In this document: one piece after another, positions 9,914-42,253 of the stretch
Position numbering within the stretch: the stretch's first letter is position 1
Layout: every line of letters begins with the position of its first letter
Assembly: GCA_963728205.1 (NCBI GenBank)
Contig: CAVSIV010000002.1
Span: forward strand, 64,001-128,000
DNA length: 64,000 nt
Reading direction: 5' to 3'
Source of the DNA: an uncultured Chloroflexia bacterium
GTDB taxonomy: Bacteria > Chloroflexota > Dehalococcoidia > UBA2979
The notes under the pieces: generated by a model
The model's input: the letters and a program-made list of their open reading frames with translations, nothing else
What the model was told of the DNA's origin: nothing
Database searches by the model: none
Position numbers and translations under genes: made by a program

Positions 9914-12589
9914 ATGGCGGACTCCATGAACAGCTTCGGCGCGCGCGACACGCTTCGCGTCGGCAACGACACCTACACCATCTACCGGCTCGGGCGCGCC
10001 GCCGAGCAGCTCGGCGTGGACATCGATCGCCTGCCATTCACGATCCGCATCCTGCTCGAGAACATGCTGCGCTACGAGGACGGCCTCAGCGTCACCACCG
10101 ACCAGGTCCGAGCCGTCGCGCAATGGGACGCCGCCGCCGAGCCCGATACCGAGATCGCGTTCCGCCCCGGCCGCATCCTGCTCCAGGACTTCACCGGCGT
10201 CCCCGCGGTCGTCGACCTCGCCGCCATGCGCGACGCGATGGCCGAGATGGGCGGCGATCCCGACAAGATCAACCCGCTGCAGCCCGTGGACCTCGTGATC
10301 GACCATTCCGTGCAGGTCGACTCCTTCGGCATCGCCGACGCCTTCCGGATCAACGCCGAGAAGGAGTTCGAGCGGAACAAGGAGCGCTACCAGCTGCTGA
10401 AGTGGGCACAGGGTGCCTTCCGCGGCTTCCGCGTCGTCCCGCCGGATACCGGCATCGTGCACCAGGTGAACCTCGAGTACCTCGCGCCGGTCGTGCTCGC
10501 CGACGAGGCCGGCAACGCCTACCCGGACTCGCTCGTCGGCACCGACTCGCACACCACGATGATCGACGGCCTCGGCGTGCTCGGCTGGGGCGTCGGCGGG
10601 ATCGAGGCGGAGGCGGCCATGCTCGGCCAGCCCGTCTCGATGCTGATCCCGCAGGTCGTCGGCGTGCACCTCACGGGCACGCTGCCCGAGGGTGCGACCG
10701 GCACGGACCTCGTGCTTCGCGTCACCGAGATCCTGCGATCGAAGAACGTCGTCGGGAAGTTCGTCGAGTTCTTCGGGCAGGGCCTCACCGGGCTGCCGCT
10801 TGCGGCGCGCGCCACCATCGCGAACATGTGCCCCGAGTACGGTGCGACGGTCGGCTTCTTCCCCGTCGACAACGAGACGCTGCACTACCTGCACCTGACC
10901 GGCCGCGACGAGGCGATCGTCAGCCGCGTCGAGACCTACACGAAGGCGCAGCATCTCTTCCGCACCGACGCCACGCCCGACCCCGTCTTCAGCGAGGTGG
11001 TCGAGCTGGATCTCGGCAGCATCGTGCCGAGCCTGGCCGGGCCGAAGCGCCCGCAGGACCGCATCGCGCTCAGCGACATGAAGACCGCGGCCCTCAAGGA
11101 GTTCGACGACCAGGTCGCGGCGGGCGGCGGTCGCCGGCCGGTGGCCGTCGAGCAGGACGGGCAGTCGTTCGAGGTCGGCAACGGCTCGGTCGTGATCGCG
11201 GCGATCACGTCGTGCACGAACACCTCGAATCCCGAGGTCATGGTCGGCGCCGGGCTGCTCGCGAAGAAGGCGGTCGAGCGTGGGCTGCACACGAAGCCGT
11301 GGGTGAAGACGAGCCTGGCGCCCGGCTCGAAGGTCGTGACCGACTACCTCGACGAGGCCGGGCTCACCCCGTACCTCAACGAGCTCGGCTTCGAGCTCGT
11401 GGGCTACGGCTGCACGACCTGCATCGGCAACTCGGGCCCGCTGCCCGAGGCGATCGAGAAGGCCGTCGACCAGGGCAACCTCGCGGTGGCCGCGGTGCTC
11501 TCCGGCAACCGCAACTTCGAGGCGCGCGTGCACAACAAGGTGCGCTCGAACTACCTCGCGTCGCCGCCGCTCGTCGTCGCGTACGCGCTCGCCGGTCGCA
11601 CCGACGTCGACCTCTACAACGAGCCGCTCGGCGAGGGCAGCGACGGCCAGCCGGTCTTCCTGCGCGACATCTGGCCAACGCAGCGCGAGGTGCTGTCGAC
11701 GATCCAGTCGTCGATCCGCTCGCAGATGTTCACGTCGGAGTACGGCGACGTCTTCAAGGGCGACGAGCGCTGGGCGGCGCTGGACGCCCCGGCCGGCGAC
11801 CGCTTCGCCTGGGACCCGGACTCGACGTACGTGCGGCGCCCGCCGTTCTTCGAGAACCTCCCGCGCCAGCCGCGGCCGCTCACCGACATCAAGGAGGCGC
11901 GTGTGCTCGCGCTCCTCGGCGACTCGGTGACGACCGATCACATCTCGCCCGCCGGCGGCATCGCGAAGAGCTCGCCGGCCGCGAAGTACCTGGACGACCA
12001 CGAGGTGCCGGTGAGCGCCTACAACCAGTACGGCGCGCGCCGCGGCAACCACGAGGTGATGATGCGCGGCACGTTCGCGAACGTGCGGCTGCGCAACACG
12101 CTGGTCGACCGCGAGGGCGGCTGGACGCGCCACCTCCCCGACGGCGAGGAGATGACGATCTGGGACGCGGCGGAGCGCTACCAGGAAGAGGGCGTCCCGC
12201 TGATCCTGATCGCGGGCCGCGAGTACGGCACCGGATCGTCGCGCGACTGGGCGGCGAAGGGGCCGTACCTGCAGGGCGTGAAGGCCGCGCTGGCGCAGTC
12301 GTTCGAGCGCATCCACCGCAGCAACCTGATCGGCATGGGCATCCTGCCGCTGCAGTTCCGCGACGGCGACTCCGCGGAGTCGCTCGGGCTGACCGGCAAG
12401 GAGCGGTTCGACGTCGATGGCATCGCCGGCGACCTCAAGCCGGGCCAGGCGCTGACGGTGCGTGCGATCGCGGACGACGGCGCGGAGCAGACGTTCGAGG
12501 TGCGCTGCCGCATCGATACGCCGGTGGAGGTCGAGTACTACCGGCACGGCGGGATCCTGCAGTACGTCCTGCGTCAACTGCTCGACTAA
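9914..12589 (+). CDS. acnA: Aconitate hydratase AcnA
   Basis: [42 protein letters not shown] and [10 protein letters not shown] motifs. Confidence 0.97.
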
Positions 12590-12659
12590 GGGACGGGCGC
12601 GGGGCGTCGCTCCCGCGCCCGAGCCGATTGCGCGCCGCCGCCGCGGCGCCCGGTGGTGG

Positions 12660-13454
12660 TTGCCGGCCGCCGCCGTCGCGCTGATGCTGGCGCTGGCGGG
12701 CTGCAGCGGCGGGCGCGTGGTCATCTCGAAGTCCGCGCGGCCGGAGTCGGCCGGCGGGCGAACGTCGTACATCGTTCTGGCGTCGGTCGGCGCCGGCGGC
12801 GAGGATGCGCAGCCCGCGGTCGGGCAAACCTACACGCGCGTCGTGGCGCCGGACGACCCGTGGGTGCGCCACTGCTACGACCAGGCGCGGGTCGGCGTCG
12901 GCCTGCCGTACTACTGCGTCAGCGGACGCACGCCGCTCGAGGCGCTCCTCATCGCCCTGTCGCTCCTCCCGGTGATCGTCATCACCTGGCTCGCCGCGCA
13001 CCGCTTCGTCGCGCGACTGCCCGAGCCCGCGCCCGTCGCCGAGACGGGTGTCGGGGACGCCGCAGGGAGCGGGGGCGGCGGTGGTGACTGGCTGCTGTCG
13101 CGACAGGCGCGCGAGCGCTCGGCCTTCGAGGCGGCGCGGGGTCCCGCCGCGCAGGCCCGCTTCGCCACCGGCCGCTATGCGCTGCGCTCGGTGGGGCTGG
13201 GCGCGCTGTACGGCCTCGCGGTCACCGCGGCCGCGAGCGCGGTGCTCGGCTGGCGCACCGCCGACGACTGGGTCGTGCTCGCCGCCGCGGCGCACATCCC
13301 GGTCGTGGGCTTCACCTACATCTGGTGGGCGCTCCACGGCCGGGTGGGGAACCGGCGGCACCTCCGCGCGCTGTTCGCGGTCGGCGGGATGATCGGTCTC
13401 GCCACGGCCGGGGTCGTGCTGCTGCTGCTCGAGGGCTCGCACGCGCTGCTCTGA
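12660..13454 (+). CDS. Hypothetical membrane protein with lipobox (start uncertain)
   Basis: Hydrophobic signal ending LAGC, a Cys pair and about 4 downstream TM segments. It fills the gap between acnA and the CoA transferase. Confidence 0.6.
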   Translation: MPAAAVALMLALAGCSGGRVVISKSARPESAGGRTSYIVLASVGAGGEDAQPAVGQTYTRVVAPDDPWVRHCYDQARVGVGLPYYCVSGRTPLEALLIALSLLPVIVITWLAAHRFVARLPEPAPVAETGVGDAAGSGGGGGDWLLSRQARERSAFEAARGPAAQARFATGRYALRSVGLGALYGLAVTAAASAVLGWRTADDWVVLAAAAHIPVVGFTYIWWALHGRVGNRRHLRALFAVGGMIGLATAGVVLLLLEGSHALL

Positions 13455-13472
13455 CGCCGCCCCACGCCTCTG

Positions 13473-13490
13473 TTCATACGTATGTAATAT
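13473..13490 (+). promoter_or_regulatory. Palindromic operator candidate CATACGTATG next to a -10-like TAATAT
   Basis: AT-rich 10-bp palindrome at 13475-13484 and TAATAT at 13485-13490, about 40 bp upstream of the CoA transferase. Confidence 0.5.
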
Positions 13491-13531
13491 CTCCCCATCG
13501 CCGCGCCGTTGCGCGACGGGGGAGGTCGACG

Positions 13532-14824
13532 ATGACGAACGCAGTGCAGGGGCCGCTCGCCGGGATCCGCGTACTCGAGTTCTCGCAGATCGTCGCGGCG
13601 CCGGTCTGCGGCGTGAACCTCTCGGATCTCGGCGCCGACGTGATCAAGGTCGAGCCGCCGGGCGGCGAGCAGACGCGCCGCTCGGGGGCGGTCGTGCCCA
13701 ACGAGGGCAAGGGTTTCCAGGCGCTGAACCGCGGCAAGCGTGGCCTCGTCGTCGACCTCCAGGATCCGCGCGGGCGCGCGGTCATCCACCGGCTGATGCC
13801 GTCGATCGACGTCGTCGCCATCAACTACCGGCTCGGCGTCGCGGAGCGGATCGGGATCGACTACCGGACCCTCAGCGCGATCCGTCCGGACCTCATCTAC
13901 TGGCAGAACACCGGCTTCGGTTCCGGCGGCCCCGAGGCGTTCCGCGCCGGCTCGGACATCGTCGCCCAGGGTTACTCGGGGCTGATGGTCACCGACGCGA
14001 AGACAAACGACGACGGCGCGCCTGACCTCGTGGCCACGCCGATCGCCGACATCGCGTCCGGCTTCGCGGCCGCGATGGGCATCTGCGCCGCGCTCTACCA
14101 TCGGGCGATGACCGGCGAGGGTCAGGAGCTCGAGACGTCGCTGTTGCGGACGTCGCTTTTCCTGCAGGGCTCGACGGTGATGCGCGAGCCGGCCAGCGAC
14201 GCGGTGCTGCGCGACCCGCTGATGGAGGAGGTCGCGGCGATCCGCGCTCGCGCCGGCTCGTACGGCGAGATCCTGGAGGCGCGCAAGGGACGCGCCGCGC
14301 TGCGCGCGGCGTTCCGGCTCTACTACGGCGCGTACCGCGCGCAGGACGGCGCGGTCGTGCTGGGCGCACTGACGAAGGCGAACCGCGACGCGATGCGGCG
14401 CGTGCTCGGGGGCGAGGACGAGGCGAGCGACGAGGACGCCTACGACGCCTTCGACCCGCTCAGCCTGGAGGAGGCGGAGCGCTGGAAGCAGCGCTATCGC
14501 GCGCTCTTCCGCACGCGGACGGTCGGGGAGTGGGTCGCGCTGTTCGACGCGGCGCACGTCCCGGTGGCACCCGTGCAGTTGCCCGAGGAGCTCGCCGACG
14601 ACCCGCAGGTGGTCGCCGACGGCGTGATGGCGGAGCTGCATCATGCCGTGACCGGCCCGCAGCGCGTCGTCGGCCCGGCGGTCACGCTGACGCGCACGCC
14701 GACCGCCGCGCGGCGCGCCGCGCCGGCGCTGGGCGAGCACTCGGTCGAGGTGCTGTGCGAGTCGGGCATGGAGCCCGTCGAGATCGCGGAGCTGGTCGCG
14801 GCCGGCGTCGTCGTCCAGCGCTGA
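13532..14824 (+). CDS. CaiB/BaiF family III CoA transferase
   Basis: GPLAGIRVLE, LGADVIKVEPP, NRGKR and APALGEHS motifs. GGAGG RBS. Confidence 0.92.
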   Translation: MTNAVQGPLAGIRVLEFSQIVAAPVCGVNLSDLGADVIKVEPPGGEQTRRSGAVVPNEGKGFQALNRGKRGLVVDLQDPRGRAVIHRLMPSIDVVAINYRLGVAERIGIDYRTLSAIRPDLIYWQNTGFGSGGPEAFRAGSDIVAQGYSGLMVTDAKTNDDGAPDLVATPIADIASGFAAAMGICAALYHRAMTGEGQELETSLLRTSLFLQGSTVMREPASDAVLRDPLMEEVAAIRARAGSYGEILEARKGRAALRAAFRLYYGAYRAQDGAVVLGALTKANRDAMRRVLGGEDEASDEDAYDAFDPLSLEEAERWKQRYRALFRTRTVGEWVALFDAAHVPVAPVQLPEELADDPQVVADGVMAELHHAVTGPQRVVGPAVTLTRTPTAARRAAPALGEHSVEVLCESGMEPVEIAELVAAGVVVQR

Positions 14825-32902: not shown

Positions 32903-32950
32903 CTGGAGCCCGCCGGTCCGCCACCGGCGGGCTCCAGTCCGTTCTCCTTG
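32903..32950 (+). terminator. Strong hairpin with pyrimidine tail
   Basis: CTGGAGCCCGCCGGT-CCGCC-ACCGGCGGGCTCCAG followed by a CT-rich tract. Confidence 0.65.
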
Positions 32951-33034
32951 CTTCTCCCTTCGCTTCTCCCTGTGCCGCCGCGCCCGCCCGATACACTCGG
33001 AGCCACTCCTGACCGTGCGAGGCGGGGAGGGCGC

Positions 33035-33838
33035 GTGAGCCGCCACGTCCTGATGTGCGAGCCGGTCCACTACCGCATCGCCTACGAGATCAACCCGTGG
33101 ATGCGACGGGCGAACGCCGTCGACGGCCCGCGGGCGCTCGCGCAGTGGCGCGGGCTGCGGCACACGCTGGAGGCGCTCGGCGTCCGCGTGGAGTGCGTCG
33201 AGCAGCGGCCCGACGTGCCGGACATGACCTTCACCGCGAACGCCGGCCTCGTGCAGGGGCGGACGTTCGTGCCGTCGAACTTCCGCTATCCCGAGCGCGA
33301 GCCAGAGCAGCTGCACTTCGTCGAGTGGTTCGCGGCGCGCGGGTACGACGTCGCTCCGCTGCACCCCCCGCACTACTGGGAGGGCGAGGGTGACGCGCTG
33401 CCGGCCGACGGACGGCTCTTCGGCGGCTACCGCTTCCGCTCGGAGGAGGGCGCGTACGACCATCTCGAGATGCTGCTCGACGTGGCGGTCGAGCGGCTCG
33501 AGCTCGTGGACCCGCGCTTCTATCACCTCGATACGTGCTTCTGTCCGCTCGGGGAGCGCCGCGCCCTGTACTTCCCGCCGGCGTTCGCGCCGGCATCCCG
33601 CGCGCTGCTCGAGGCGTCGTTCGACGACCTCGTGGCCGTACCGGAGCCGGAGGCGCTGCGCTTCGCCTGCAACGCGCTGGTGGTCGACGGGGCGGTGGTG
33701 CTGAACAGCGGCTGTCAGGAGACCGAGCGCGCGCTGGCGGAACGCGGGCTGCGCGCGGTGACGAGCCCGACCGATGAGTTCATCAAGGCCGGCGGCAGCG
33801 TGAAGTGCCTGGTGCTGATGCTCGATGCGTACGCGTAG
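33035..33838 (+). CDS. Amidinotransferase/dimethylargininase (pentein) family protein
   Basis: YEINPWM, PDMTFTANAG, EGEGD, FYHLDTCF and KAGGSVKC motifs. Confidence 0.9.
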   Translation: MSRHVLMCEPVHYRIAYEINPWMRRANAVDGPRALAQWRGLRHTLEALGVRVECVEQRPDVPDMTFTANAGLVQGRTFVPSNFRYPEREPEQLHFVEWFAARGYDVAPLHPPHYWEGEGDALPADGRLFGGYRFRSEEGAYDHLEMLLDVAVERLELVDPRFYHLDTCFCPLGERRALYFPPAFAPASRALLEASFDDLVAVPEPEALRFACNALVVDGAVVLNSGCQETERALAERGLRAVTSPTDEFIKAGGSVKCLVLMLDAYA

Positions 33839-33849
33839 CGGTGAGAGGA

Positions 33850-33886
33850 GCGGACCGGCCGGTCGCACGGATGCCGGCCGGTCCGC
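33850..33886. terminator. Hairpin between convergent genes
   Basis: GCGGACCGGCCGG-n11-CCGGCCGGTCCGC. Confidence 0.55.
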
Positions 33887-33954
33887 GGTGCTGTCGCGAG
33901 GCACGCTCGTCGCCGCGCGCGTTGATGGCGTTCTAGGTGTCGTGGCGGCCGCTG

Positions 33955-34599
33955 TCAACGGATGTGATTGCCCTGCTCGGGGCGGTCGGCGCCGGCAACG
34001 CCGCCGGCGCGCACGAGCAGGTCCTCGAGCTCGAGCTGCCACTCGATCGCGGCGCGGCGGCGCTCCGGCGTATTCGCCAGCTCCTCGTAGATCGCCTGGC
34101 CCCAGCGCAGGTGCTCCTCCTTCTCGAGGAGAATGAGGTCGAGCAGGCGCGCAGTGGGGCCGTCGCAGACCGGATCGGTCGCGGCGCGGTGGTAGCGGTA
34201 GTTCACGGCGAGGTGCGTCTTCAGCACGCGGTAGAGGCCGACGACGCGCAGCAGCTCGTCGCCCTGCGCCTGCAGCGCGCCCGCGAAGCGGACGAACGCC
34301 TCGTTCGGCGGCTCGGCTTTGTCGGACCCGCGCAGGGTTGGCGGCTCGTCGTGGTGGGCGCCGTCGAGCACCCGCAGCTCGGGCAGGCGCTGGCCGAGCC
34401 ACACGTAATGCTGCGAGTCGTGGTACGCGCGCTCGGAGAGGCCCCACTTCACCTTGATCGTGGGGCAGGTCGGCGCCCAGCCGGCGCCGGTGACCATGCA
34501 GAGCCGCTCGGCGTAGCGGTAGTGGGTGATGCGGCGCGCATTCTCCTCGACACCGAACGCTCCGCCGATGCGCCGCGTGTCGATCGCGTACTCCGTCAT
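33955..34599 (-). CDS. Ferritin-like fold protein with degenerate iron ligands
   Basis: Helical pattern E...HDSQH...K...EKEEH where a diiron protein has E/ExxH/E/ExxH. GAAGGGG RBS. Confidence 0.65.
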   Translation of the reverse strand: MTEYAIDTRRIGGAFGVEENARRITHYRYAERLCMVTGAGWAPTCPTIKVKWGLSERAYHDSQHYVWLGQRLPELRVLDGAHHDEPPTLRGSDKAEPPNEAFVRFAGALQAQGDELLRVVGLYRVLKTHLAVNYRYHRAATDPVCDGPTARLLDLILLEKEEHLRWGQAIYEELANTPERRRAAIEWQLELEDLLVRAGGVAGADRPEQGNHIR

Positions 34600-34612
34600 C
34601 GTGGCAGCCCCT

Positions 34613-34963
34613 TCACCGCAGCGCCCTCCGCGGAGCGTCTGGAGCAAGCAGAGCGAGGCGACGTTCGATCACGCGGCGCGCGTCCGCGTCGAGCTCGGCC
34701 GTGACCAGCCGGCCGGACCGTGCGAAGTCGCGGGCGCGCTGCTTCGCGCGTTCGAGCTGCGCCGGCGCCGGAACGGTCTCGGGGTGCGAGGAGATGCAGT
34801 CGATCGGGCACACCTGCGCGCAGATCCCGCAGTCGATGCACCACTCGGCGTCGATCACGTGTCGGCGGCGCCCGGTCGAGAAGTAGTGCACCGTGCCCGT
34901 CGGGCACGCGAGCCGGCAGAGCCCGCAGTTGATGCAGGGCGTGGGGTCGATCACGTAGGTCAT
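34613..34963 (-). CDS. 2x[4Fe-4S] ferredoxin with C-terminal helical extension
   Basis: CINCGLCRLACP and CIDCGICAQVCP. The start overlaps the upstream stop (TGATG). Confidence 0.92.
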   Translation of the reverse strand: MTYVIDPTPCINCGLCRLACPTGTVHYFSTGRRRHVIDAEWCIDCGICAQVCPIDCISSHPETVPAPAQLERAKQRARDFARSGRLVTAELDADARRVIERRLALLAPDAPRRALR

Positions 34964-35868
34964 CAGGCGCCGGGCTCGTAGCCGCCGGTGAGCGACTGCC
35001 GCTCCTGCGCGCTCAGCGGTCGCGCCGGCAGCGCATCTGCGTCGGCGGAGTCGGACAGCGGGCCGACCAGCACCGACGTCGCGCGGTCGGTTTCGTTCTG
35101 GAGGAAGTCCATCACCTCCTCGCGCACCTGCGGCGCAACGTTGCGCCGCTGGTTCTCGCGGCCGGCCTCGGTCATCGCCTGCGCGCGCAGCGCCGCGCGC
35201 TCCGCCTGCGGATGCTCGTCGGCGATGCGCTTGAGGAACCAGTCGCCGATCGACACGTGCACGACCTCGTCGGCCCAGTTGTAGTCGTAGACGTGCTCCA
35301 TCAGGTGGTCGTCGATCCTCGCGCCGAGGCGGCTGACGCCCGAGAACAGGCGCAGCGCGGCGCCCTCGATTCCGACGTTCACGGACGACAGGATCATGAC
35401 AGGGTTCAGCGCCCGCACGCGCGCCGCGATCGCCTCCTCCTGCGTCTGCTGTTGCGCCTGGCTGGCACCGGCGAGGGTGTCCGGGTATTCGCCCAGGACG
35501 CCGCCGTAGCTCTCGAGCAGCTCGGTGCCGAGGCGCGCGTGCCGCACCTCGTCCCACGTCTGGCGCACCATCGCGAGCAGCAGGCCGTCGGGCAGCGGCT
35601 GGTCCTCCCAGCGCGCCACGTTGCGGCCGAAGGCGTCGATGCCGGCGTACTCGGCGCTCACGATCGAGGAGACGAGCGCGCGCCGGTACTCGAGGTCGTC
35701 GGGGTCCTGCAGCACGAGGCGCTGGAGGACGTCGGACGCGTAGTGGTCCGGGCCGCCGATGCGCTCATCGAGCCGCGCGCGCTCCGCGTCGTCGATCGTG
35801 GCGAGCGGGCGGTAGGGCGGGTTGCGCACCGCGGGGTGGTCGTCGAGGTAGTCGGAGAGGACGCCCAT
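34963..35868 (-). CDS. Ferritin-like diiron protein (DUF455-like)
   Basis: E73, D106-E107xxH110, E168, D200-E201xxH204 followed by VSIGDWF. AGGAGG RBS. Confidence 0.82.
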   Translation of the reverse strand: MGVLSDYLDDHPAVRNPPYRPLATIDDAERARLDERIGGPDHYASDVLQRLVLQDPDDLEYRRALVSSIVSAEYAGIDAFGRNVARWEDQPLPDGLLLAMVRQTWDEVRHARLGTELLESYGGVLGEYPDTLAGASQAQQQTQEEAIAARVRALNPVMILSSVNVGIEGAALRLFSGVSRLGARIDDHLMEHVYDYNWADEVVHVSIGDWFLKRIADEHPQAERAALRAQAMTEAGRENQRRNVAPQVREEVMDFLQNETDRATSVLVGPLSDSADADALPARPLSAQERQSLTGGYEPGA

Positions 35869-35963
35869 CGCTGCCTCCTATCGCCGTCGTGATGGGGATG
35901 GTAAGCGACCGGGGGCGAGGCAGTCGCACCCGGACCGCGGGCATCGCGTCCCAGCGCGGTCCC

Positions 35964-36020
35964 GGCAAGCGGCGGCAGGATGCCGCCGATACTGCCGGCG
36001 GCAGGATGCCGCCGCTTGCC
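35964..36020. repeat. REP-like doublet, family A
   Basis: Two CGGCGGCA-GGA-TGCCGCCG hairpins flanked by GGCAAG / CTTGCC. Confidence 0.85.
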
Positions 36021-36041
36021 ACGAGGCTGGGCCGGCGCCGG

Positions 36042-36389
36042 TCAGGCGCCCGCGTGGATCGCGCTCTCGAGCGTGTACTCGTAGTAGGTGATCGCCTCGC
36101 TCACCGAGAAGCGGTCGCGGATGAACTCGATCTCGGGCTGCTTCCTCAACACCGAGTCGAGGGTGAGGTTGGCGCCGAGTGCCGGCCAGCGCATGACGGC
36201 CGGCATCTTACGGCCCGGCCGCGGCTCAATCGTCTCGTCGAGCAACTCGGGCTTCATCGTCAGCAGCTTCAGGTACGCCGACGTCAGCGTCTTCACCGCG
36301 TCGGTCGCGTTGCCCTTGCGCATCATGTCGTGCGCGGACTCGATGAGCGCCCGCAGTTCAGAGTCGGTGACCTGCTCGGGCTTCGCCAT
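36042..36389 (-). CDS. Hypothetical protein (115 aa)
   Basis: Globular composition, GGAG RBS, directly downstream of the LLM gene. Confidence 0.8.
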   Translation of the reverse strand: MAKPEQVTDSELRALIESAHDMMRKGNATDAVKTLTSAYLKLLTMKPELLDETIEPRPGRKMPAVMRWPALGANLTLDSVLRKQPEIEFIRDRFSVSEAITYYEYTLESAIHAGA

Positions 36390-36422
36390 GCCGGGACTCC
36401 GCTCGAAGGTGCGCCGCGCTGG

Positions 36423-37673
36423 CTAGATCGACGAGTTCACGGGGAACTCGATCCCATGGAGCTGCTCGTCCCGCCACGGCCGGTGCACCTTCTCGTGGCG
36501 CTCCTTGAACTCCGGCAGGACCTCGCGGCCGAACGTCTCAATCGACTCCATGATGTGCTCGTGCTTCCGGTCGCCGGCCTGCGCGACGAAGATCATCACG
36601 TCGAGGTGCTGGTCTTCGTACTGCTTCAACGTCGCGCGCAGCCGCTGCGACGTGCCGATCGCGTTGCCGCTGCGGGCGGCGCGGTAGAGCGCGCGGCGCA
36701 CCTCGTCCTCGGGCTCCTCCGCGCGCAGCTCCGTCTCGGTGAGGAAGCCGCGGCGCTGCACCTGCACCTGCGCCTCGCCCTCGGACGAGCTGTCCCGGTA
36801 GCCGCGGTAGAGGTTGGTGCGGCCCGGCTGGTGCTTTCCGCCCGTCGTCGGGTTGTAGTAGTAGCCCAGCGAGTACGAGAAGAACCCGGGGCCGCCCGCG
36901 CTGCGCTTGATCGCCTCCTCGTCGGTCGGCCCCATCATGAAGGTGTTCAGCACCGCCAGGCCGGGGTTGATCGCGTGCCCGATCGGCATGCACTCCTCGC
37001 GGATCAGCCGGTAGTACTCCTGCGTCCGGTCGCCCAGCTCCTCCGGCGTCTCGAAGCCGAAGCCGAGCGACGCCATCCCGAGCCGCGCGGCGACCATCGT
37101 GGTCTCGCGTCGCGAGGCGGCGACCCAGAGCGGCGGGTGCGGCTTCTGCACCGGCTTCGGCACGACGTTCCGCGGAGGCATCGAGAAGAACTCGCCCTCG
37201 AAGCCCTGGTAGGGAACCTGCGTCATCATGTTGGTGATCTCGCGCGTCGCCTCTTCCCACATCGCCTTCTTCAGACCGCGGTCGACGCCGAAGCCGCCCA
37301 GCTCCATGTCCGACGACGACTCGCCGGACCCGAACTCCACGCGACCGTTCGAGAGGATGTCGAGCGCGGAGATCCGCTCGGCAACGCGTGCGGGGTGGTT
37401 GTATGCGGGCGGCGTGAGCACGATGCCGTGCCCCAGGCGAATGTTCTTCGTGCGCTGCGAGAGGGCGGCCATCATCAGCTCGGGCGTCGAGGAGTGCGAG
37501 TATTCCTCGAGGAAGTGGTGCTCCACTTCGAAGACATAATCAAATCCCAGCGAGTCGGCGAGCTCCACCTGGTCGAGCATCTCGTGGTAGATGCGCTGCT
37601 CGGCTTCGGGGTCCCACTGGTCACGGTCGTACGGCTTGGGGAGCTGGAGCTCGTAGAACAGCCCGAACTTCAC
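36423..37673 (-). CDS. LLM-class flavin-dependent oxidoreductase
   Basis: KFGLFYE, VEHHFLEEYSH, HPARVAE and PKPVQKPHPPLW motifs. Confidence 0.92.
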   Translation of the reverse strand: MKFGLFYELQLPKPYDRDQWDPEAEQRIYHEMLDQVELADSLGFDYVFEVEHHFLEEYSHSSTPELMMAALSQRTKNIRLGHGIVLTPPAYNHPARVAERISALDILSNGRVEFGSGESSSDMELGGFGVDRGLKKAMWEEATREITNMMTQVPYQGFEGEFFSMPPRNVVPKPVQKPHPPLWVAASRRETTMVAARLGMASLGFGFETPEELGDRTQEYYRLIREECMPIGHAINPGLAVLNTFMMGPTDEEAIKRSAGGPGFFSYSLGYYYNPTTGGKHQPGRTNLYRGYRDSSSEGEAQVQVQRRGFLTETELRAEEPEDEVRRALYRAARSGNAIGTSQRLRATLKQYEDQHLDVMIFVAQAGDRKHEHIMESIETFGREVLPEFKERHEKVHRPWRDEQLHGIEFPVNSSI

Positions 37674-37829
37674 GGTAGTGCCCCCTCGCGGTGACCGGCG
37701 GCGTGAGTGCGGCGAATGCTCTGCGGTGCCTCTGAGGGTGTCAAGGCATTACGCGCGCGCATCCAACAGGTGTGCGAGCACGGCGTGTAGCATGCCCGCA
37801 CGACGGCGATCGACGGGGGGAGCGAACCC

Positions 37830-39206
37830 ATGACGCAGACGAGCGACCGAGTCGGCGAGTACCTGCAGCGTGGTCTCGATCACCTCTGGGTGCACACGCA
37901 GCAGTACAACGAGCTCGCGCGCGAGGACGGCCTCGTCGTGATCACGCGCGGCGACGGCATCTACGTCGAGGACAGCAAGGGCCGCCGCTACATCGACGCG
38001 ATGTCCGGACTCTGGGTCGTCGCCGTCGGCCACGGCCGCAGCGAGCTGGGCGAGGTCGCGAAGCGCCAGATGGAGGCGCTCCCGTACGCCAACGCGTTCG
38101 CCTACGCGACCGAGCCGGCCATCGATCTCGCGACGAAGCTCGCGCAGATCACGCCGCCGAGCATCCAGAAGGCCTACTTCGTGAACTCCGGCTCGGAGGC
38201 CGTCGAGAGCGCGGTGCGCATGGCGAAGCAGTACCACTACAACCGCGGCGCGCAGCGCAAGCAGAAGGTGATCGCGCGCCAGGGCTCGTACCACGGCATC
38301 ACCGCGATGGCGATGTCGCTGAACGGCTCGACGTATGTCAACAAGAAGCCGTTCGAGCCGCTGATGCCCGGTGTGTTCCACGTCGAGAACGTGAACTGCG
38401 CACGCTGCCCGTTCGAGAAGACGTACCCGGAGTGCGATGTCTTCTGCGCGCGGCACATCGAGGACGAGGTGAAGTTCCAGGACCCGGCGACGGTCGCCGC
38501 GATCATCGCCGAGCCGATCTCGACGTCGAACGGCTGCTACGTCCCACCGCCCGAGTACTGGCGCACGCTGCGCGACATCTGCGACCGGCACGACATCGTG
38601 CTGATCGCGGACGAGGTGATCGACGGCTTCGGCCGCACCGGCGAGTGGTTCGGCATCCAGCACTTCGACGTCGAGCCCGACATCATGACGGTCGCGAAGG
38701 GGATCTCGTCGGGCTACGCGCCGATCGCGGCGACGCTCGCGTCGCAGCGCATCGCGGACGCGTTCGTCGGCGAGAAGGGCGACGCGCTGTCGGGCGGGAT
38801 CACGTGGGGCGCGCACCCGGTGTCGTGCGCCGTGGCGCTCGCGAACATCGAGATCATCGAGCGCGAGCGGCTCGTCGAGAACGCACGCGCCGTGGGCGAG
38901 CACCTCGCGACGCAGCTCGCGGAACTGCGCGCGCGGCACCGAGTGGTGTCGGACACGCGCGGCATCGGGCTGATGCACACGGTCGAGATGAAGCGCGACC
39001 CGGCGGCGGGCGAGGATTTCCGCGCGGAGGACGACGTGGCGACGCGCATGCCGGAGCTGCTGCGCGAGCAGGGGATCCTCTCGCGTGCCGGGGCGAGCAT
39101 CGCGGTGGCGCCGCCGCTCGTGATCAACCGCGAGGAGGTCGACAACCTGGTCGACGCGCTCGACCAGGCGATCGGGCGGCTGGAGCAGGACCTGCGCCTC
39201 GCGTAG
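37830..39206 (+). CDS. Class III (omega-amino acid/polyamine) aminotransferase
   Basis: DAMSGLW, NSGSEAVE, SYHG, LIADEVIDGFGRTG and AKGISSGY motifs. Confidence 0.93.
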   Translation: MTQTSDRVGEYLQRGLDHLWVHTQQYNELAREDGLVVITRGDGIYVEDSKGRRYIDAMSGLWVVAVGHGRSELGEVAKRQMEALPYANAFAYATEPAIDLATKLAQITPPSIQKAYFVNSGSEAVESAVRMAKQYHYNRGAQRKQKVIARQGSYHGITAMAMSLNGSTYVNKKPFEPLMPGVFHVENVNCARCPFEKTYPECDVFCARHIEDEVKFQDPATVAAIIAEPISTSNGCYVPPPEYWRTLRDICDRHDIVLIADEVIDGFGRTGEWFGIQHFDVEPDIMTVAKGISSGYAPIAATLASQRIADAFVGEKGDALSGGITWGAHPVSCAVALANIEIIERERLVENARAVGEHLATQLAELRARHRVVSDTRGIGLMHTVEMKRDPAAGEDFRAEDDVATRMPELLREQGILSRAGASIAVAPPLVINREEVDNLVDALDQAIGRLEQDLRLA

Positions 39207-39218
39207 GCGAGGCAGCCC

Positions 39219-40214
39219 TCAACTCACGCTGCGCAGGAACTCCACGAGCTCGGCGTTGACCGCATCGGGCCGATCCTGCTGGATCCAGTGCCCGGCGCCC
39301 GGTAGCAGCACGAACCGCCGCAGGTCCGGCACCGCCTCGCGCACGCGCTCCTCGAGGTCGTCGCCGGCGCCCATGATCCCGCCGCGCACGATCACCGGGT
39401 CGAGCGCGCCGGCGACGAAGAGCGCCGGCTGCGAGACCGGCACGCCGGCGAGCTGCGGGGTGAGCTGCCAGTTGCGGTCGAAGTTCCGGTAGTAATTCAC
39501 CGGGCCGCGGAAGCCCGAGTGGCGGAACTGCTCGACGTAGTAGTCGAGGTCGGCGCGCTCCAGCCAGGCGGGGAGCCCGGCGGGTTCGGGCAGACGGCCG
39601 ATCCATCCGCCCGCGCTCATCGCCGTGTCGGTGATCGACGGCGGCGCGGCGATGGGCGCGCCCGGCGACGTGTAGAGGCGGCGCAGGAACGTCTCCGGAT
39701 CGGCGTCGAACTCGGACTCGGCGACGCCCGGCTGCTGGAAGTAGAGGATGTAGAAGAAGCGGTCGCCGAAGCGACGGCGCATCGCGGACAGCGGCGCGAG
39801 CGGTGCGCGCCCGGTGTACGGCACGCTGAGCGCCGCGACGGCCCGGAAGCGGTCCGGCCGCAGCAGCGCGAGCTGCCAGGCGATGATCGCGCCCCAGTCG
39901 TGACCGACGACGACGGCGGTGGCCTCGCCCAGCGCGTCGAGCAGGCCCGTGGCGTCCGCCGCGAGGTGCGCGATGTCGTAGTCGTCGACGTCGCTCGGGG
40001 CGTCGGTCCCGCCGTAGCCCCGCAGGTCCGGCGCGACGGTGCGGAAGCCGGCGGTGGCCAGCGCCGGAAGCTGGTGGCGCCACGAGTACCAGGACTCGGG
40101 GAAGCCGTGAAGCAGCAAGACGGCGGGCCCGCGCCCGGCCTCGGCGACGCGCATGCGCAGCCCGTTCGCCTCGACCGTTCGCAGCTCGACACCCGGCGGG
40201 GTGGGATCCGGCAT
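39219..40214 (-). CDS. Epoxide hydrolase-like alpha/beta hydrolase
   Basis: HGFPE, GHDWGA, FYILYFQ, NYYRN and GHWIQQ motifs. Confidence 0.92.
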   Translation of the reverse strand: MPDPTPPGVELRTVEANGLRMRVAEAGRGPAVLLLHGFPESWYSWRHQLPALATAGFRTVAPDLRGYGGTDAPSDVDDYDIAHLAADATGLLDALGEATAVVVGHDWGAIIAWQLALLRPDRFRAVAALSVPYTGRAPLAPLSAMRRRFGDRFFYILYFQQPGVAESEFDADPETFLRRLYTSPGAPIAAPPSITDTAMSAGGWIGRLPEPAGLPAWLERADLDYYVEQFRHSGFRGPVNYYRNFDRNWQLTPQLAGVPVSQPALFVAGALDPVIVRGGIMGAGDDLEERVREAVPDLRRFVLLPGAGHWIQQDRPDAVNAELVEFLRSVS

Positions 40215-40355
40215 GACGCACCTCCGCCGGCAGTATGCGCGTCCGATCGGACGCCCGCCGCGCCGGCGGACATGCGCCGTCCGCTTGACGCGCTCGCCCG
40301 CACGGCCGACGCTCGCGCGCGCCATCACGCCTGCCATCGCACCGGAGGAAGCCAC

Positions 40356-41429
40356 ATGGAGACGCGCGCTGCCGTCCTCGTCGAGCACGGGAAACCACTG
40401 GCCGTCGAGGCCGTCACGCTCCCGGACCCGGGGCCCCTCGAGGTGCTCGTCCAGCTCTACGCCTCGGGGATCTGCCACTCGCAGCTGCACCAGCTGCACA
40501 ACCCGGATCAGGCCACGCCCGCGCTGCTCGGCCACGAGGCCACCGGCGTCGTCGTCGCCGCCGGACGCCAGGTCACGCACGTCCGCGAGGGCGACCGCGT
40601 CATGGTGACGTGGGTGCCGCGCGACGTGACGCCGGAGACCGCGCGCCTCGCGCGCTCGAAGTTCACGTTCCGCGGCGCCGAGCACGACGCGGGCGTCTAC
40701 ACCTGGGCCGAGCACGTCCTCACCCACGAGCAGCTCGTGCTGCCGCTCGACCCCGCGGTCCCGACCGACGTCACGGCGATCATCGGCTGCGCGACCGTCA
40801 CCGGCGTCGGCGCGGTGATGGGGACGGCGAAGGTGCAGCCGGGCGAGACCGTCGCGGTCTTCGGCGTCGGCGGCGTCGGCATTAACGTGATCGCCGGAGC
40901 GAAGATCGCCGGCGCCGCGCGCGTGATCGCGGTCGACCTCGACGACGCGAAGCTCGCGTGGTCGAAGGAGTTCGGCGCGACCGACGCGGTCAACGGCCGC
41001 ACGAGCGACCCCGTGGAGGCGATTCGCGAGCTCACCGGCGGCGGCGTCGACTACGCGTTCGACGCGATCGGCATGGAGTCGGTGATCAACCAGTGCCTGG
41101 AGTGCCTGCGGCCCGGCATCCTCGGCGCGCGGCGCGGCGGCACGGCGGTGTCGGTGGGCATCCCGCAGGGACCGGTGACGCTGCACCCACGGCTGTTCCC
41201 GATGGGCGAGCGCTCGCTGGTCGGCTCGCTCGGCGGCTCGAGCCACCCGCTCGAGGACTTCCCGCAGTACGTCGAGTGGTACAAGCAGGGCGCGCTGCCG
41301 CTCGACAAGATGATCACGAAGGTCTACCCGGGCCTCGACTCCATCAACGAGGGCGTGGCGGCGCTCGAGCGCGGCGAGATCACCGGGCGCTCGATCATGG
41401 TGTACGGGCACCCGGAGGGCGCGCGATGA
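40356..41429 (+). CDS. Zn-dependent alcohol dehydrogenase (MDR) lacking the structural-Zn loop
   Basis: GICHS, GHEA, IGCA and GVGGVG motifs, with no CxxCxxC lobe. GGAGG RBS. Confidence 0.88.
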   Translation: METRAAVLVEHGKPLAVEAVTLPDPGPLEVLVQLYASGICHSQLHQLHNPDQATPALLGHEATGVVVAAGRQVTHVREGDRVMVTWVPRDVTPETARLARSKFTFRGAEHDAGVYTWAEHVLTHEQLVLPLDPAVPTDVTAIIGCATVTGVGAVMGTAKVQPGETVAVFGVGGVGINVIAGAKIAGAARVIAVDLDDAKLAWSKEFGATDAVNGRTSDPVEAIRELTGGGVDYAFDAIGMESVINQCLECLRPGILGARRGGTAVSVGIPQGPVTLHPRLFPMGERSLVGSLGGSSHPLEDFPQYVEWYKQGALPLDKMITKVYPGLDSINEGVAALERGEITGRSIMVYGHPEGAR

Positions 41430-42253
41430 CGGCCGAGCTGACGGGGCTGCAAGACCGCGTCGCCGTCGTGACCGGCGCCGGTCGCATGCGCAGCATCGGT
41501 CGCGAGCTGGCGAAGGCGTTCGCCGCCGCCGGCTGCGACGTCGTCGTCACCGGGACGGGCCGCTCGCCCGACCGCTACCCCGACGACGAGCAGGCGGCGG
41601 GCTGGCGCGACATCGAGTCGGTCGCCGACGAGATCCGCGCGGCCGGTCGGCGCGCGCTGCCGCTGGTGAGCGACGTCTCGGATGAGGCTGAGGTGCAGCA
41701 GCTGCTCGACCGCGTGATCGGCGAGTTCGGGCGCGTCGACTTCGTGATCAACAACGCCGCCGCGGCGCGCGGTCGCGATCGCGTGCCGATGGTCGATATG
41801 CCCATCGACGCGTGGGACCTCGTGCACCGTGTGAACGTGCGCGGCACGATGCTGATGTCGCGTGCGTTCGGCCGGCGGCTGATCGAGCAGGGCGTGGGCG
41901 GAGCGATCGTGAACATCTCGTCGGTCGCGGGGAAGCTGCTCGGGCCGAACACGGGCGCGTACGCGTCGAGCAAGGCCGCGATCCAGGCGATGACCGCGGT
42001 GATGGCGCGCGAGGTCGGCCAGTACAACGTGCGCGTGAACGCGATCTGCCCTGGGCTCATCGACAACAACCGGCTCGACGACGTCCCGCGCGACAGCGAC
42101 CGCTGGCGGCAGATGGTCGCGAACATCCCGCTGCGTCGCACGAGCGCCGGCGAGGACGTGCCGAACATGGCGGTCTTCCTCTGCAGCGAGCAGGGCGCGT
42201 GGATCACCGGCCAGTCGATCAACGTCGATGGCGGCCTGGCCGTGCAGCACTGA
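41426..42253 (+). CDS. SDR family oxidoreductase
   Basis: VTGAGRMRSIG, NNAA, NISS, YASSK and ITGQSINVDGG motifs. ATGA overlap. Confidence 0.9.
   Translation: MTAELTGLQDRVAVVTGAGRMRSIGRELAKAFAAAGCDVVVTGTGRSPDRYPDDEQAAGWRDIESVADEIRAAGRRALPLVSDVSDEAEVQQLLDRVIGEFGRVDFVINNAAAARGRDRVPMVDMPIDAWDLVHRVNVRGTMLMSRAFGRRLIEQGVGGAIVNISSVAGKLLGPNTGAYASSKAAIQAMTAVMAREVGQYNVRVNAICPGLIDNNRLDDVPRDSDRWRQMVANIPLRRTSAGEDVPNMAVFLCSEQGAWITGQSINVDGGLAVQH

Follow-up and report, generated by a model that had tools for sequence, protein, structure and literature searches.

Several oxygenases pair an active ferritin-like diiron subunit with a partner that lacks iron. The multicomponent monooxygenases, which include toluene-4-monooxygenase (T4MO), toluene/o-xylene monooxygenase (ToMO), phenol hydroxylase and sMMO, combine a diiron alpha subunit of ~500 aa with a homologous metal-free beta subunit and an Fe-S donor. 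In phenylacetyl-CoA epoxidase, PaaA is active and PaaC is its iron-free ferritin-like partner, and in benzoyl-CoA epoxidase the two [4Fe-4S] clusters of BoxA feed the diiron centre of BoxB. The cyanobacterial aldehyde-deformylating oxygenase (ADO) is a small diiron enzyme of the ferritin-like type that receives its electrons from ferredoxin, and yeast ribonucleotide reductase Rnr2-Rnr4 joins an active diiron subunit to a paralogue with lost metal ligands. Here we describe three minus-strand genes, g1, g2 and g3, at positions 33955-35868 of a 64,000 nt stretch of DNA from an uncultured Chloroflexia bacterium (the window, i.e., the whole stretch that was analyzed). We put at roughly 55% the probability that this trio encodes a ferredoxin-driven alpha/beta diiron oxygenase belonging to a catabolic module.

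Such an oxygenase would add a compact third example to the pairs of active and inactive ferritin-like subunits found in the multicomponent monooxygenases and in PaaAC. The trio is also a candidate for oxidative substrate breakdown in bacteria that are represented mostly by metagenome-assembled genomes (MAGs). The DUF455 family, to which g1 is related, is widespread, and the cassette offers a testable architecture: a catalytic domain with an obligatory degenerate sister, either fused or split, and a ferredoxin in the split clade.

Gene organization of the trio

The trio lies in a stretch with a G+C content of 72%. g1 (34963-35868, minus strand, 301 aa), the proposed catalytic alpha subunit, starts from an ATG located six bases after TAGGAGG. 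The ATG of g2 (34613-34963, minus strand, 116 aa), the proposed dedicated electron donor, has one base in common with the g1 stop codon (TGATG), and that of g3 (33955-34599, minus strand, 214 aa), the proposed beta subunit, is found after GAAGGGG, 13 bp past the g2 stop codon. In the window the genes are translationally coupled. The coordinates and both junctions are as claimed in the original prediction, which had been made from the sequence of the window without database searches. The start Met of each of the three proteins is matched by the starts of homologues; a longer TTG-initiated frame for g3 was rejected, as its relatives start at the ATG of 34599. A promoter/terminator scan of 33600-38000 returned no promoter-like site and a single terminator-like site, which is on the opposite strand and at chance level. 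As every related locus with sufficient flanking DNA has the identical gene order, this arrangement is not due to chance.

g1 carries a complete set of diiron ligands

In Pfam, g1 matched DUF455 (PF04305) with an E value of 9.2e-7 and 29.1 bits against a gathering cut-off of 34.3, over profile positions 58-216 of 247, and 42/44 aligned relatives of g1 matched the family at E≤1e-3. There was a trace match to AurF (E 0.045) and no match in NCBIfam. g1 is the sole DUF455-like gene in the host genome. As stated in the original prediction, DUF455 appears to have no established function: in the accessible parts of the literature searched, the mentions of the family (PF04305/COG2833/IPR007402) were incidental or unrelated and no functional study was found.

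The ligand set first read from the g1 sequence, E73, E107xxH110, E168 and E201xxH204, is invariant in all 44 split-form relatives of the alignment. The AlphaFold model of g1 (predicted local distance difference test score (pLDDT) 81.2) is a helical bundle with long N- and C-terminal extensions, in which helices 59-87, 96-120, 156-184 and 188-218 carry E73, E107/H110, E168 and E201/H204, respectively, so that a four-helix bundle presents the E, ExxH, E and ExxH of ferritin-like diiron-carboxylate proteins. Both ExxH motifs belong to a (D/E)ExxH pair, D106-E107..H110 and D200-E201..H204, and a class-II pair of this kind fits O2-activating diiron enzymes. The DUF455-like ending is present as D200-E-V-V-H-V-S-I-G-D-W210, i.e., DExxHVxxGxW, and the pattern given for it in the original prediction, DExxHVxxGxxW, is one residue too long.

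Foldseek returned nothing from the Protein Data Bank (PDB) for the g1 model at E≤1e-3, and sequence and profile searches of the PDB returned nothing for g1 or g3. Matches to g1 in the ESM Atlas were unnamed or generic ferritin-like clusters (0.87-0.91), which serve as leads only. g1 contains no Cys-rich domain, the rubredoxin-type domain of rubrerythrins included. Relatives of g1 with lengths of 528-2000 aa, such as g1-ferredoxin fusions, were not found, which is weak evidence.

An invariant N-terminal arm of g1, RxPxYRP at residues 15-21, looks by eye like the P-x-R-D-x-R-F of interdomain linkers in the fused proteins described below, which raises the possibility of a conserved strap that holds the partner domain. 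In one related locus (L001, 5989-7272), the frame of the g1 homologue is open to 427 aa and has a low-complexity tail past residue ~244. Because the ferredoxin and g3 come next in other frames, this extension is probably a frameshift or an assembly error.

g2 is a dicluster ferredoxin with a helical tail

g2 contains two CxxCxxCxxxCP motifs and matched Fer4 (E 1.4e-13, 50.5 bits) and Fer4_7 (47.9 bits), both above the cut-offs, as is characteristic of 2x[4Fe-4S] dicluster ferredoxins; none of the named NCBIfam ferredoxin subfamilies was matched above cut-off. Past the second motif, g2 continues for ~57 aa, close to the ~50 aa originally noted, with a basic and helical tail. In 64 unique ferredoxins of related loci, whose total lengths are 91-127 aa, the tail retains its length and the pattern L..AK..AR..A is conserved.

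g3 is a ferritin-like protein with altered ligands

g3 belongs to no family in Pfam or NCBIfam. Its model is a ferritin-like bundle (pLDDT 89.9; predicted TM-score (pTM) 0.85), as expected from the helical pattern that had been recognized in the sequence. The best structure found by VIA-align is the ADO-type 5ux2_B (Z 17.5, root-mean-square deviation 2.5, 170 residues aligned); 3ez0 (Z 16.4) and the ToMO beta chain (Z 15.7) were also matched. No PDB entry was found with the g3 model by Foldseek at E≤1e-3, the top row being 3rmk_B, the beta chain of T4MO (E 1.4e-3, TMq 0.68). Since helical bundles often give Z scores of ~14, these matches are evidence at the level of the fold only.

Detection of a relationship between g3 and g1 depends on the breadth of the profiles compared. 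With narrow profiles, hhalign gave a probability of 0.6%, and the absence of homology read from this value was superseded by broad profiles including the fused domains, which aligned g3 12-187 with g1 54-229 over 161 columns at 95.5% (E 1.5e-8). In this alignment, E31, D61, H64, K127, K160 and H163 of g3 correspond to E73, E107, H110, E168, E201 and H204 of g1, respectively, K127 occupying the position of the helix-C Glu. The ligand positions are thereby placed in register, and g3 is a deep paralogue of g1 with Asp and Lys substitutions. The fold model and hhalign agree with the altered motifs pointed out in the original prediction, HDSQH (D61, H64), a Lys in place of Glu (K127) and EKEEH (K160, H163). 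The six canonical diiron ligands are therefore not all present in g3: four of the six positions are retained in the window protein and five in most relatives, position 160 being Glu in >90% of the relatives and Lys in the window.

Fusion of g3-like and DUF455 domains

Searches with g3 retrieved 657 relatives at E≤1e-3 in one search and 544 in an exhaustive search; together with the 80 metagenome loci described below, these hundreds of sequences are ready material for comparative work. Many of the relatives are 400-550 aa in length with the g3-like part at the N terminus, and DUF455 was found in the C-terminal half of all eight long relatives that were scanned, above cut-off in seven (38-99 bits). 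The 150 matches listed include 42 long representatives (380-560 aa), and in 38 of these a g1-like domain follows the g3-like one, so the fusions of genes 1 and 3 that the original prediction proposed to look for do occur in nature. All six ligands are kept in the C-domains (38/38), while in the N-domains of the 42 fused sequences E31 is kept in 34, H64 in 33, K127 in 34, D61 in 25, E160 in 24 and H163 in 12.

As evidence of the Rosetta-stone kind, these natural fusions indicate joint action of g1 and g3, and along with the conserved gene order they argue for a g1-g3 complex. Complex prediction weakly supports the pairing, with a score of 0.58 for g1-g3 against 0.00 for the best of three controls; contact agreement between runs was at least 91% and the partner pLDDT at least 88. 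The mark set for this score was reached by 58/80 solved complexes and 2/110 mismatched pairs, only 7 of those 80 solved complexes doing so at ≤0.60.

In the split clade, E31, D61, H64, K127, H129, E161 and H163 of g3 are invariant in 40/40 sequences, and so is the long inter-helix loop 76-99 (P87, R90, S92, P97, N99). Identity to the window protein is higher for g3 than for g1 in all 41 complete loci, with medians of 64.0% vs 47.3%. Such conservation would be unexpected if the role of g3 were purely structural. The original prediction had called g3 iron-free, which can be held only tentatively: the canonical set is indeed incomplete, but a protein that keeps four of the six positions, has an invariant altered site and loop and evolves more slowly than g1 may have a metal or another functional site. 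Why the ligand-poor subunit should be under tighter constraint than its catalytic counterpart is a well-defined question for structural studies.

The same conservation can be explained if g3 has a functional site of its own, either a mononuclear metal site (E31, D61, H64, H163 and E160/E161) or one based on Lys127/His129. g1 and g3 would then make up a two-site heterodimer, in which the role of the g3 site would be substrate binding, electron gating or relay, or catalysis of a second step. This alternative has to account for the decay of H163, D61 and E160 in the fused N-domains and for the Lys at position 160 of the window protein in addition to that at 127, as a buried Lys can fill a lost metal site. 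We consider it the main rival but unlikely, and prefer an alpha/beta unit in which g3 would pair with the diiron subunit g1.

Conservation and distribution of the cassette

The trio was compared across 81 loci, comprising 80 metagenome loci from a scan with the g3 alignment and one genome locus. A same-strand ferredoxin gene precedes g3 in 65/65 loci with at least 400 nt upstream, and g1 is located upstream in 56/56 loci with at least 700 nt; these genes are not seen in the remaining loci because these end too early. The trio is thus conserved, as the original prediction required.

A search of genome contigs with g1 returned one locus only. g3 is present in none of three genomes of the same genus (80-95% complete), in 3/36 of the same family and in 2/24 of the class outside this family. 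When the phylum was sampled evenly, 22/401 genomes including that of the window matched g3, and the 21 others did so at ≤41% identity, mostly in frames of ~370-530 aa that represent the fused form; a few were cut by contig ends. The distribution is patchy. By source name, most close homologues come from MAGs labelled Dehalococcoidia or Chloroflexi bacterium, and the cassette is common among uncultured soil and sediment bacteria. The host genome (89% complete; contigs C1, C2 and C6) carries four full-length genes for haem-copper oxidase subunit I (COX1) above cut-off, which makes O2-dependent chemistry plausible. A survey of sequencing runs turned up no RNA dataset, and the five DNA datasets listed contain only 6-9% of the sampled sequence words.

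Comparison with described diiron systems

Neither g1 nor g3 gave a match at E≤1 to Phenol_Hydrox (PF02332), PaaA_PaaC (PF05138) or Ald_deCOase in Pfam, although 2/44 relatives of g1 matched Phenol_Hydrox at E≤1e-3. The trio therefore belongs neither to the multicomponent monooxygenases nor to the PaaA/PaaC group. It resembles the former in having a putative diiron alpha subunit, a homologous ligand-altered partner and an Fe-S donor, and their beta chains (3rmk_B and that of ToMO) are among the fold matches of g3; it differs in the shorter g1 of 301 aa and in a 2x[4Fe-4S] ferredoxin in place of a Rieske protein. The scanned neighbours included no recognizable effector protein, Rieske ferredoxin or NADH reductase, one neighbour of 115 aa being without a family. 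The PaaC chain 3pvr is also among the matches of g3 (Z 13.4), as a fold match only, and no PaaB-, PaaD- or PaaE-like genes were seen. The Fe-S donor recalls BoxA, but g2 is a free ferredoxin of 116 aa without the FAD domain of BoxA.

ADO-type proteins are the best VIA-align matches of g3, and ADO differs from the trio in being a single subunit. Rnr2-Rnr4 shares the pairing with a ligand-depleted paralogue; its family and chemistry are unrelated and it has no ferredoxin. Within DUF455, the fused relatives match the family above cut-off, and the g1 clade is set apart by a catalytic domain split from its partner domain with a ferredoxin gene inserted between them. No characterized system or solved structure was matched, in agreement with the original proposal of a distinct system.

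Genes surrounding the split and fused forms

To describe the neighbourhood of the split form, stop-to-stop open reading frames (ORFs) from 31 long loci and the window (32 sources) were clustered, and one representative per cluster was scanned. A frequent neighbour is a luciferase-like (LLM) flavin-dependent oxidoreductase, found in 19/32 sources. In the window this gene (36423-37673, minus strand, 416 aa; Pfam Bac_luciferase, E 1.9e-41) is upstream of the trio and on the same strand, and between it and g1 lies a gene for a 115-aa protein (36042-36389, minus strand) with no match in Pfam or NCBIfam and no usable match in the ESM Atlas. The order LLM-small-g1-g2-g3 is shared with three genomes of the same family. 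Elsewhere, of the 47 loci with at least 900 nt downstream of g3, 20 have a same-strand LLM homologue there at a distance of up to 1.6 kb; the homologue is further downstream in L053 and L079, and divergent and upstream in L110 and L111. Since the LLM gene is adjacent to the trio in three different arrangements, the adjacency survives rearrangement, and the LLM protein is likely a pathway partner of the trio.

The LLM protein of the window is nearest to luciferase-like structures of the FMN type (7bip, 2i7g and LuxA), and no NCBIfam subfamily was matched above cut-off. CofG for F420 biosynthesis was not found in the host genome, 89% complete as it is, which is a weak hint at FMN rather than F420. 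The 115-aa homologue is beside the LLM gene in 7/81 loci, and in the three same-family genomes it has 71-72% identity; its occurrence follows that of the closer LLM subclade.

Other recurrent neighbours of the split form are a short-chain dehydrogenase/reductase (SDR) in 16/32 sources, a divergent regulator of the MarR type shortly upstream of g1 in 11/32 (found by GC3 and Pfam; for instance, L077 6243-6824), an acyl-CoA dehydrogenase (ACAD) in 10/32 and a second LLM gene in 7/32. A weak AMP-binding neighbour together with ACAD hints at CoA chemistry. The word 'minimal' in the original prediction is open to doubt, given an LLM oxidoreductase in about half of the loci and the 115-aa protein and SDR in close relatives.

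The fused forms have different neighbours. Among 18 regions, again scanned with one representative per cluster, there were sugar-type ABC binding proteins in five, each of two permeases in four, GFO/IDH/MocA oxidoreductases in five, and a PfkB kinase, a xylose-isomerase-like TIM barrel, a sulfatase and an SDR in three each. No LLM gene lies within 1.5 kb of the fused loci (0/29). These neighbourhoods suggest a carbohydrate-linked role for the fused branch of DUF455, and because they differ from those of the split clade, the substrates of the two clades probably differ as well.

Proposed mechanism and alternatives

In the oxygenase model, g1 would be the catalytic ferritin-fold subunit binding a carboxylate-bridged diiron centre, and g3, its anciently duplicated and ligand-altered sister, would pair with it as an alpha/beta unit. 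g2 would act as a low-potential 2x[4Fe-4S] ferredoxin passing electrons to the diiron site, and its conserved basic helical tail probably docks the ferredoxin on the complex. The reduced diiron centre would then activate O2 to hydroxylate, epoxidize or desaturate an organic substrate, after which the LLM, SDR and ACAD enzymes would process the substrate or product further. Together with the MarR regulator, these neighbours point to a putative inducible catabolic module, and the substrate may be CoA-bound, lipid-like or an aromatic acid.

Several observations weigh against this model. The fold matches of g1 are generic, being bacterioferritin, Dps and rubrerythrin-like proteins with Z scores of 12-14.6, in a range where Z ~14 is commonplace for helical bundles. 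g3 is more conserved than the subunit assumed to be catalytic. The neighbours vary, and 27/47 loci lack an LLM gene just downstream of g3. Only 1/29 fused loci has a ferredoxin within 1.5 kb, a tailed 2x[4Fe-4S] protein encoded just downstream in L006, and the fused relatives reside in other contexts, chiefly with sugar-transport and sugar-oxidoreductase genes.

The generic folds of g1 would also suit a ferredoxin-dependent peroxide or oxygen reductase, which would reduce H2O2 or O2 to water with g2 as the reductant and without an organic substrate, providing rubrerythrin-like stress protection. Bundles of the bacterioferritin, Dps and symerythrin types are the closest to g1 in fold, there is no evident domain for handling a substrate, and a rubrerythrin-like peroxidase devoid of rubredoxin has been reported (PMC3317640). 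We nevertheless regard such a reductase as decidedly unlikely. g1 gave no match to Rubrerythrin (PF02915) at E≤1, rubrerythrins are not known to require a ligand-poor partner, the conserved context of MarR, LLM, SDR and ACAD looks catabolic, and the distribution is that of a patchy accessory function (trio in 0/3 same-genus and 3/36 same-family genomes).

The resemblance of g1 to bacterioferritins could instead reflect a heteromeric ferritin-like shell for iron storage and mobilization, from which the ferredoxin would free iron as Bfd does from bacterioferritin; an FTR1-like permease, named from its ORF translation only, is encoded upstream on the other strand in L001. Long N- and C-terminal extensions of g1 and two-domain fusions fit cage assembly poorly, in most loci the neighbours are oxidoreductases rather than iron-uptake genes, and Bfd is a [2Fe-2S] protein, unlike g2. 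This makes an iron-storage pair very improbable. Both the stress-enzyme and the iron-storage explanations are weaker rivals than the two-site reading, and gene context and architecture disfavour them.

A bolder version of the two-site idea, which we offer tentatively and do not expect to hold, makes g3 the functional heart of the enzyme: its invariant Glu/Asp/His/Lys/His set would make up an additional site without diiron, either active or substrate-binding, that works with the g1 diiron centre and the ferredoxin. Combined with the LLM protein, such an enzyme would represent a route, not described so far, by which uncultured Chloroflexota-type bacteria oxidize organic matter from the environment.

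Other genes near the trio and its relatives

Some genes of the window were considered as parts of the module and dropped on the basis of their occurrence in the 81 loci. The DDAH-like, class III aminotransferase and alpha/beta-hydrolase genes recur in none of them, and the Zn-dependent alcohol dehydrogenase (Zn-ADH) in one. The plus-strand gene at 32948-33838, convergent with g3, matched dimethylargininase/arginine dihydrolase models (E 7e-72, below the cut-offs) and is found beside the trio in 0/81 loci. The genes at 39222-42250 lie 3-6 kb upstream of the LLM gene. On the minus strand there is an alpha/beta hydrolase that matched haloalkane dehalogenase models best, in each case below cut-off; on the plus strand it is followed by a Zn-dependent alcohol dehydrogenase starting at 40356 and by an SDR starting at 41426. 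Of these, only the SDR type recurs near the trio elsewhere.

Near the fused forms in other genomes of the phylum (L112-L129), aldo/keto reductase genes are also found, and L113 contains two fused paralogues ~4 kb apart. The LLM gene beside the trio in L137 (~11796-14618; G414) is split by an insertion of ~1.5 kb with a 465-aa transposase-like ORF, and in L138 (G433) the LLM match falls into two overlapping pieces, which suggests a frameshift.

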